NCBI RefSeq assembly: GCF_030013205.1
Contig: NZ_CP122648.1
Reading direction: 5' to 3' (one strand)
Length of the DNA stretch: 64,000 nt
From: Escherichia coli
GTDB lineage: Bacteria; Pseudomonadota; Gammaproteobacteria; Enterobacterales; Enterobacteriaceae
Shown: in pieces, positions 56,743-57,200 of the stretch
How the letters are laid out: each line of letters starts with the position of its first letter
How positions within the stretch are numbered: position 1 is the first letter of the stretch
Made by a program: the position numbers and the translations under genes
The notes under the pieces: generated by a model
Seen by the model: the letters and a program-made list of their open reading frames with translations, nothing else
Told to the model about the DNA's origin: nothing
Databases searched by the model: none

Positions 56743-56767
56743 ACTTTTTTCTCCTGTAAATAAAAAA

Positions 56768-56783
56768 GGGCCACCAGCGGCCC
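56768..56783 (-). terminator. Intrinsic terminator immediately upstream of holin (tR'-like)
   Basis: Minus strand: GGGCCGCTGGTGGCCC hairpin followed by TTTTTT, ~10 nt before the holin RBS. Confidence 0.6.
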
Positions 56784-56918
56784 GTAAAAAAACAACACCC
56801 CGTCAAAGGCACCCGCAGATACCTTTTGTGTGGTGTATTCAGATTTGACATACGCTGAGCAGGGCGAAGAAATGAAAAAGGCCCGCAGTAGCGAGCCATG
56901 AAGAAACTGAATAAAAAA

Positions 56919-56938
56919 AACCGCCTGGTACGGCGGTT
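56919..56938 (-). terminator. Second upstream intrinsic terminator (minus strand)
   Basis: Minus strand: AACCGCC-gtacca-GGCGGTT followed by T8. Confidence 0.65.
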
Positions 56939-57200
56939 AAGATGAATTTCCAGGTTTTGCTTAATACGTGATTAATCTCAACGTTTTTTATAGATGTTAA
57001 CAACATCGGAATGATGCATCACCGGCCCTGTCAGGAAATACAAAATCTCCACCGATAATGCACCATTACGCTGTTGTAAAAAGACAGCACTGGACTGTAA
57101 CCGATATCACGTATTACAGAACAGGATGTGGATAAAGATTCAGGAAAACATCCCACATATAATATGTCAGTGCCCAAAACAACTTGGTATCGTCTACTGC

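Follow-up and report, generated by a model that had tools for sequence, protein, structure and literature searches.

What keeps the lysis genes of a lambdoid prophage silent until induction, and from which promoter are they transcribed thereafter? The question is raised by a stretch of 64,000 nucleotides from Escherichia coli (contig NZ_CP122648.1; referred to, at its full length, as ‘the window’), 5.3 kb of which match, at 100% identity, a lambdoid prophage in the chromosomes of E. coli O139:H1 from pigs and wild boar (strain W13-16, and many enterotoxigenic E. coli, or ETEC, isolates). The late genes of this prophage occupy the minus strand. Its first lysis gene, which encodes a holin, is preceded by a gene for tRNA-Gly and, farther upstream, by the gene for the antiterminator Q (Table 1). 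A first-pass annotation of the window took the spacer between tRNA-Gly and holin for the late control region itself, that is, for the late promoter PR', the Q-utilization site (qut) and the promoter-proximal terminator tR'. We find three intrinsic terminators in this spacer, termed here T1, T2 and T3, and conclude that they are probably genuine terminators of another kind: gates situated within the late transcription unit, served by a late promoter at about 58654–58560, well upstream of the tRNA gene.

Terminators and structured RNA ahead of the holin gene

Intrinsic terminators were defined strictly, as stems of at least 6 bp with at least 5 GC pairs, followed by at least 5 Ts in the next 6 nt. 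Eleven sites in the window qualify, counting both strands (128 kb of strand), and T1–T3 are three of the eleven, a clustering far above chance. Predicted folding energies are –12.4 kcal/mol for T1 (z = –4.16 against shuffled sequences), –13.8 for T2 (z = –5.52) and –10.8 for T3 (z = –1.75). T1 and T3 are the hairpins that had been named in the first-pass annotation, at 56919–56938 and 56768–56783; both are present on the minus strand, with runs of eight and six Ts, but T2, which lies between them, had been overlooked. All three fall within 180 nt of the holin ATG, on its upstream side. The stem of T3 ends 25 nt from the holin ATG and 12 nt from the AGGAG ribosome-binding site (RBS), close to the 10 nt or so that had been estimated, and its U-tract ends 6 nt before the RBS. 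A match to isrK in an Rfam scan of the window (12.4 bits) is terminator noise.

We compared the terminators with those of annotated relatives and of about 90 distinct IMG/VR loci. T1-type hairpins occur in 74 of 83 distinct related loci, placed after a conserved RNA hairpin behind the phage tRNA-Gly; the stem is kept and the loop is variable. T2 is present in relatives with short spacers, degraded in SerU-LTIIb, and absent from phi80. T3 lies no more than 70 nt upstream of this type of holin in 44 of 49 loci, and is invariant in sequence, 24–26 nt before the holin ATG, in phiP27 (where it comes after stx2e), phi80, SerU-LTIIb, ETEC1732 and others. BLAST alignments break at 56909, immediately past T1, at 56847, past T2, and at 56787, shortly before T3, and in ETEC1732 genes for TerB and DUF3927 are inserted between T2 and T3. 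This insertion parts the terminators, and they also keep different company: T1 goes with the tRNA and its hairpin, T3 with the holin of family PF16931. They thus mark the edges of distinct modules; the spacer from tRNA-Gly to holin is, on this evidence, a mosaic.

Does the same spacer also contain the late promoter? Promoter prediction on the minus strand of 56940–57200, proposed in the first-pass annotation as a check, yields no sigma-70-like site at a threshold of at least 9 of 12 matches. A marginal string, TTAACA-18-ATTAAT (57000–56971), lacks the A at position 2 of its –10 element and is not conserved in the relatives compared. The interval is taken up, instead, by structured RNA. An imperfect hairpin of 31 bp lies between tRNA-Gly and T1, with 98.1% of cells paired among 25 distinct sequences, three pairs showing compensatory changes, and many G–U pairs, the last of which point to a strand-specific RNA structure rather than to a promoter. 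The hairpin is kept in about 40 sequence variants from lambdoid phages, and the module that it forms behind tRNA-Gly is found in hundreds of lambdoid prophages, phi80 included; no Rfam family matches it. A protein-coding explanation was tried and rejected: one frame is open in 14 of 39 variants and closed in the window, and 1-nt insertions in the loop would shift it in two loci (L014 and L074). These failures, together with the G–U-rich covariation, favour RNA. A smaller hairpin, about 80 nt after the tRNA, comes in two sequence classes (CTGTAAT/ATTACAG and GGCTA/TAGCC) that share one fold, and may act in processing or as an additional, weak terminator.

A further consideration is specificity. 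Recognition by Q depends on the allele, and qut is located inside PR' (PMC6266700). The block that runs from the tRNA and its hairpin through the terminators to the holin follows four Q families—PF06530, PF03589, a 229-aa Q and DUF1133—and no element in it co-varies with the type of Q. Given this dependence, a qut site specific to one Q cannot be located in a block that four unrelated Q families share. The region 56743–57200 thus has the intrinsic terminators expected of a late control cassette, but neither a promoter at the threshold used nor specificity for a Q family. Of the read-through layout proposed for it, one part survives: the terminators do appear to lie in the path of late transcription, and are probably read through by Q-modified polymerase; the position of the promoter does not survive. 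ETEC1732, in which Q is adjacent, has a promoter-like site over the Q stop codon, then a hairpin, then a second promoter-like site just before the tRNAs. This is the order mapped in the Shiga toxin (Stx) phage Sp5: PR', tR', and a separate tRNA promoter (PMC7547250).

A candidate late promoter downstream of Q

A region with the expected specificity occurs at 58654–58560. Q lies 1.5 kb upstream of it, beyond a reversed pair of genes that includes one for a DUF6731 protein, and the holin 1.8 kb downstream. In the late direction the region comprises an A-tract, a palindrome, a conserved hexamer of the form TAnnnT, an invariant 28-nt leader, and a hairpin followed by Ts. Judged by its sequence and distribution, it is likely to be the PR'–Q-binding element–pause–tR' cassette that belongs to the Q of this prophage. 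Transcription should start within 58620–58606.

The cassette is exclusive to one family of Q. Its leader motif occurs in 73 distinct IMG/VR loci, and the nearest upstream Q belongs to PF06530, the family of the window's Q, in 57 of these and to another family in none. In the first set of loci, the motif was present in all ten with a PF06530 Q, and in none of 51 loci with other Q families was it found; LR-21-1, one such, shares only the terminator-proximal 28 nt, and there a lambda-type Q with its own promoter-like site joins the AraC block exactly at the shared terminator. The leader lies 60–82 nt from the Q stop codon in 14 loci, and is separated from Q by 500–3000 bp of cargo in 43. In every locus compared, the cassette precedes the lysis genes. 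Positions 58652–58495 of the window match at 78–81% the DNA right after the Q stop codon in Stx2a phages, the Q of which is 73% identical to the window's, and at 100% phage cdtI, a phage that shares with the window its Q and, in identical arrangement, its reversed cassette.

Within the cassette, variation is confined in an informative way. The palindrome is GCGGTCCGC where Q is at least 73% identical to the window's, CGCGTACGC where it is 46–58% identical, ACGTACGT with quuD, and GGAATTCC with phiP27. It partitions perfectly by Q subtype, while leader and hexamer remain constant. This is the pattern expected of a Q-binding element (QBE) that stands beside promoter and pause elements recognized by the host, and marks the palindrome as the candidate QBE. 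Positions 2 and 6 of the hexamer are A and T, respectively, in 60 of 60 variants. Its region, with the leader, aligns with that of the sigma-dependent pause element (SDPE) of phage 21, the TAAGCT of which is resembled by a TAAGAG in the cassette. The tR' hairpin and its run of Ts are likewise kept in the 60 sequence variants, about 50–60 nt from the predicted start. Co-inheritance with a Q family, a palindrome that varies with Q, and a promoter-proximal terminator are thus all found here.

It would follow that the late promoter had been misplaced by about 1.6 kb. Cargo does appear to separate it from Q, as the first-pass annotation supposed, but this cargo consists only of the reversed DUF6731/hypothetical cassette, and not of all 3.4 kb. 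A promoter-like site within the reversed cargo, at 60043–60015 just after Q, was considered as an alternative position for PR'. It was rejected, since it does not stay with Q in other contexts: Stx2a phages pass directly from Q into a block like that at 58.6 kb. A full-text literature search for the leader sequence gave no match. Cargo between Q and leader takes other forms elsewhere; in two loci with a quuD-type Q (L046, 578–779, and L094, 695–896) it is an IsrK and C4-antisense RNA cassette, with Rfam scores above the gathering score.

Table 1. Features of the late region, listed in the direction of late transcription (window positions)
Feature	Position	Strand	Description
KilA-N gene and DUF968 gene			Upstream of Q in the late direction
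Antiterminator Q gene	60493-60128	-	121 aa; PF06530, E 4.6e-52
Bidirectional hairpin A6-GGGCA-TTTC-TGCCC-T5	60103-60127	both	-13.0 / -13.4 kcal/mol by strand
Hypothetical membrane protein gene	59661/59736-60104	+	Reversed cargo, with DUF6731 gene
DUF6731 protein gene	58716-59657	+	Reversed cargo between Q and candidate PR'
Intergenic block between DUF6731 and AraC genes	58715-58500		
A-tract	58654-58642	-	
Palindrome GCGGTCCGC	58639-58631	-	Candidate QBE in promoter spacer, 11 nt upstream of TAnnnT
TAnnnT hexamer TAATCT	58619-58614	-	Conserved; candidate promoter -10 or SDPE
Invariant 28-nt leader GTTAAGAGTGGTTACTTCGCCACACAGC	within 58586-58619	-	After hexamer
Candidate tR'	58580-58560	-	Hairpin CCCGCCGTCGAGCGG (CCCGCC..GCGG), then six Ts
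AraC-family regulator gene (HTH_AraC)	57693-58544	-	Start GTG 58544 in PGAP (Prokaryotic Genome Annotation Pipeline)
AT-rich gap between AraC gene and tRNA-Gly			
Candidate tRNA promoter TTGATA-16-TAGTAT	57390-57417	-	9/12 matches
tRNA-Gly (UCC)	57201-57275	-	65.6 bits
Spacer, tRNA-Gly to holin			458 nt
Small hairpin CTGTAAT...ATTACAG	57078-57119	-	Then five Ts; -13.0 kcal/mol
Imperfect RNA hairpin, 31 bp	57077-57000	-	Between tRNA-Gly and T1
T1 intrinsic terminator	56938-56913	-	AACCGCCGTACCAGGCGGTT; stem-loop 56938-56919, then eight Ts; U-tract 56920-56913
T2 intrinsic terminator	56897-56875	-	GGCTCGCTACTGCGGGCC; stem-loop 56897-56880, then five Ts 56879-56875
T3 intrinsic terminator	56783-56762	-	GGGCCGCTGGTGGCCC; stem-loop 56783-56768, then six Ts 56767-56762
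Holin RBS AGGAG	56755-56751	-	ATG 56742-56740
Holin gene, first lysis gene	56742-56350	-	PF16931, Phage_holin_8, E 5.7e-24; with RBS from 56755
Second holin gene, then M15 endolysin gene			Downstream of PF16931 holin

Proposed mechanism and its alternatives

The late region could then work as follows. In a lysogen, polymerase that starts at PR' would stop at tR', and polymerase from the promoters of the tRNA and of the AraC ‘moron’ carried as cargo would stop at T1, with T2 as back-up. Whatever leaked through would stop at T3, part of the holin module, just short of the RBS, and the lethal lysis genes would stay silent. Upon induction, Q would load onto polymerase paused just downstream of PR', and the modified enzyme would pass tR', T1, T2 and T3 in turn to transcribe the holin, the endolysin and the remaining late genes. 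Since T1–T3 lie inside the late transcription path, only antiterminated, Q-modified polymerase would be expected to reach the holin. Morons do come with a promoter and terminator of their own (PMC3594210, PMC8065619). What we infer from sequence is promoter activity, pausing, the efficiency of termination and read-through dependent on Q, and we regard the explanation as a whole—late-operon gates at T1–T3 and PR' at about 58654–58560—as probably correct.

Several observations weigh against it. The candidate PR' has no good –35 element and falls under the 9/12 threshold of our scan. The register of its hexamer is ambiguous (–10 or SDPE); three registers were considered, and sequence alone does not choose among them. 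The tR' hairpin of the window is weak (–8.4 kcal/mol, z = –1.07), having lost one G with respect to most relatives. T3, with a z-score of only –1.75, is invariant, and so offers evidence of conservation but none of covariation. And the prophage is partly deleted—its terminase and RusA genes are truncated, as are tail genes—with the result that the full late programme cannot run here.

The alternative that survives best is that T1 serves mainly to terminate a small regulatory RNA, and that guarding the holin is a side effect. Such an RNA would be cut from the tRNA transcript at the long hairpin (e.g. by RNase III), or would start at a weak local promoter. We consider this possible though rather doubtful; it is, in part, compatible with the gate model. 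In its favour, STnc100 is matched in phi80-type relatives over its full length but below threshold (24.4 bits, E 0.0016–0.0067, for an Rfam gathering score of 47 bits) by the sequence that reaches from the hairpin's 3' arm to T1, and the start of the STnc100 model coincides with the 3' arm. Prophage small RNAs with intrinsic terminators often adjoin holin/lysozyme operons (bioRxiv 10.64898/2026.05.13.724894; PMC8550237), and PasD2 of E2348/69 occupies a similar position with a promoter and terminator of its own. The window, however, contains no STnc100 match at E values up to 10, the STnc100-like body being deleted in the short-spacer class, and no similarity to the PasD2/PasA region of E2348/69; Rfam scans of the window and its relatives for this spacer found the tRNA and otherwise only sub-threshold matches. 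Nor does a small RNA account for T2, or for the constant distance of 25 nt between T3 and the holin.

The comparison does raise the prospect, tentative as it is, that 57119–56913 forms an undescribed and widely conserved phage RNA module, in which an RNase III-type cut at the hairpin frees a small RNA terminated by T1. This RNA could be STnc100-like in phi80-type phages and a shorter variant in the window, and could be cut from the tRNA transcript or from the late transcript. The units represented by PasA, PasC, PasD and STnc100 are likewise small, end in intrinsic terminators, and lie between late cargo and the holin/lysozyme operon (bioRxiv 10.64898/2026.05.13.724894), but differ in that none has a sequence or covariance-model match in the window. 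In the locus of phi80 carried by DH5alpha (L010, 4093–4289), the STnc100-like match falls between the hairpin and T1, and position 1 of the model aligns with the 3' arm, which suggests that the small RNA's 5' end arises by cleavage in the hairpin. We see the conserved hairpin RNA behind tRNA-Gly as an only mildly novel by-product of the analysis.

It is improbable that the terminators are inert relics, functionless hairpins in an untranscribed region of a defective prophage. The truncations just listed would accord with decay. The lysis cassette, Q and the PR' block, on the other hand, are intact, with no difference from their counterparts in phage cdtI, which was deposited as a complete phage genome, and the same terminators are kept in the complete phages phiP27 and phi80. 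An intact holin gene downstream of expressed morons would, if anything, make silencing more needed. The arrangement proposed in the first-pass annotation, with PR' and qut in 56940–57200, T1–T3 as their tR' and the whole 3.4 kb from Q to tRNA as cargo, can point to terminators directly upstream of the holin, to the fact that cargo can part Q from PR' in the PF06530 family and to the marginal string about 45 nt before T1, but is very unlikely in view of the covarying RNA that fills the interval, the four Q families that precede it, and the presence of the Q-family-specific cassette elsewhere.

If the gate model is right, the lysis genes and the cargo downstream of 58.6 kb would be controlled by Q from a promoter that other cargo has split from the Q gene, and three further terminators would insulate the holin from constitutively expressed cargo. 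The outcome for this prophage, of a kind carried by edema-disease and ETEC-type E. coli of pigs, is a corrected map of late control. Such maps could help to predict which prophage cargo depends upon induction, as the stx genes do in related phages, and to annotate PR' in the many prophages with a PF06530 Q in which it is not adjacent to Q, DLP12 of E. coli K-12 among them.

Related phages and neighbouring genes

By analogy, the concept is one of textbook lambdoid regulation, and lambda, phage 21 and DLP12 appear to follow the same logic. Phage 21, the Q of which belongs to a related family, offers a close parallel in order. In its curated record, the Q stop codon is followed by a –35, a QBE within the spacer, a –10, the start, an SDPE at +2 and a terminator that ends at +50; beyond the terminator come tRNA genes, a further hairpin-T site and the holin gene S21. 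The candidate elements of the window stand in the same order, with the same distance from promoter to terminator, about 50–60 nt. The two differ in that the cassette of phage 21 begins 7 nt past the stop codon of Q, with TTGACA as a perfect –35, whereas the window's is 1.5 kb away with no good –35, and in that the QBE of phage 21 consists of two direct 8-bp repeats, whereas the candidate QBE of the window is a palindrome. The window also has an added AraC moron, three pre-holin terminators in place of one, and a different holin family.

The hairpin-T site ahead of S21 is homologous to one in lambda, at 45002. Lambda has a constitutive PR' just after Q, and between PR' and S has hairpin-T sites at 44774, 45002 and 45062, all of which are read through by Q-modified polymerase; Luk and Szybalski reportedly described tandem late-operon terminators in 1983. 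The loop-size limit of our terminator scan caused the tR' of lambda to be missed. Unlike the window, lambda has a Q of the unrelated family PF03589. Its interval is free of tRNA genes, morons and structured RNA, and about 120 nt part its last terminator from S, compared with 25 nt for T3 and the holin. A hairpin-T site also lies about 45 nt before the holin in prophage PP2 of E2348/69.

In the Stx phages 933W and Sp5, PR' is closely tied to Q, and transcription from it stops at tR' in lysogens to give the StxS RNA; a separate tRNA promoter lies downstream of tR', and tR' is parted from the lysis genes by cargo (PMC7547250, PMC8065619). The homologue of the window's 58.6-kb block comes directly after Q in those Stx2a phages that have a Q of 126 aa. 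Sp5 differs in its 258-nt distance from PR' to tR', in cassette sequence and in Q allele, and the cargo of the window is an AraC gene rather than a toxin. In DLP12 a PF06530 antiterminator gene (quuD) is followed by a reversed nmpC, by the same block of leader and terminator and by lysis genes, the operon of which is reportedly controlled by Q (PMC7918800). From this block to essD the distance is 170 nt, however; the palindrome is ACGTACGT, and there is no AraC gene, tRNA or T1–T3. This cassette (L233, 3693–3785) would give rise to a constitutive transcript of about 50 nt that parallels StxS. The K-12 Term-seq tables searched, which may be incomplete, list no 3' end upstream of essD, a result that carries no weight either way.

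Likeness at the other end of the region is greatest with phiP27 (Stx2e), phi80 and SerU-LTIIb, which share the two-holin and M15 endolysin cassette preceded by an identical T3. In phi80 and SerU-LTIIb the likeness extends to tRNA-Gly, the RNA hairpin and T1. Upstream they diverge: phiP27 has stx2e, phi80 an insert like STnc100, and SerU-LTIIb duplicated holin/tRNA units. The Q families differ as well.

The Q of the window is 100% identical to that of phage cdtI, 73% identical to that of Stx2_EH2201, and only weakly similar to the Q21 of solved structure. Immediately after its gene, a symmetric terminator hairpin fills the 23-bp gap between Q and the convergent gene for a hypothetical membrane protein. 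This gene and that for the DUF6731 protein have a GC content of 33–39%, and could be a defence or exclusion cassette.

The AraC gene has a GC content of 41–46%, compared with 55% for the lysis genes. It is missing from cdtI and DCE7, in which the conserved block runs into other genes, and in these two respects, variable presence and AT-rich composition, it fits the definition of a moron. A promoter-like sequence in this unit, TTGCAT..TATACT (58496–58470), falls under the threshold of our scan, and the next strong terminator downstream is T1. The GTG start codon assigned to the gene in RefSeq, 58544, falls in a block that is present also in loci without the gene; the true start is likely the ATG at 58436, which has AGGGA before it. 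Farther downstream, the site at 57390–57417 is a candidate for the tRNA promoter, by analogy with Sp5, the tRNAs of which have a separate, mapped promoter downstream of tR' (PMC7547250).

Two further observations concern the far end of the prophage. The gene for the large subunit of terminase is truncated and fused to remnants of tail genes, which marks the prophage as defective. Directly after the endolysin gene, and opposed to the late operon, lies a gene for a lipopolysaccharide (LPS) core heptose(II)-phosphate phosphatase (55058–55633, plus strand).

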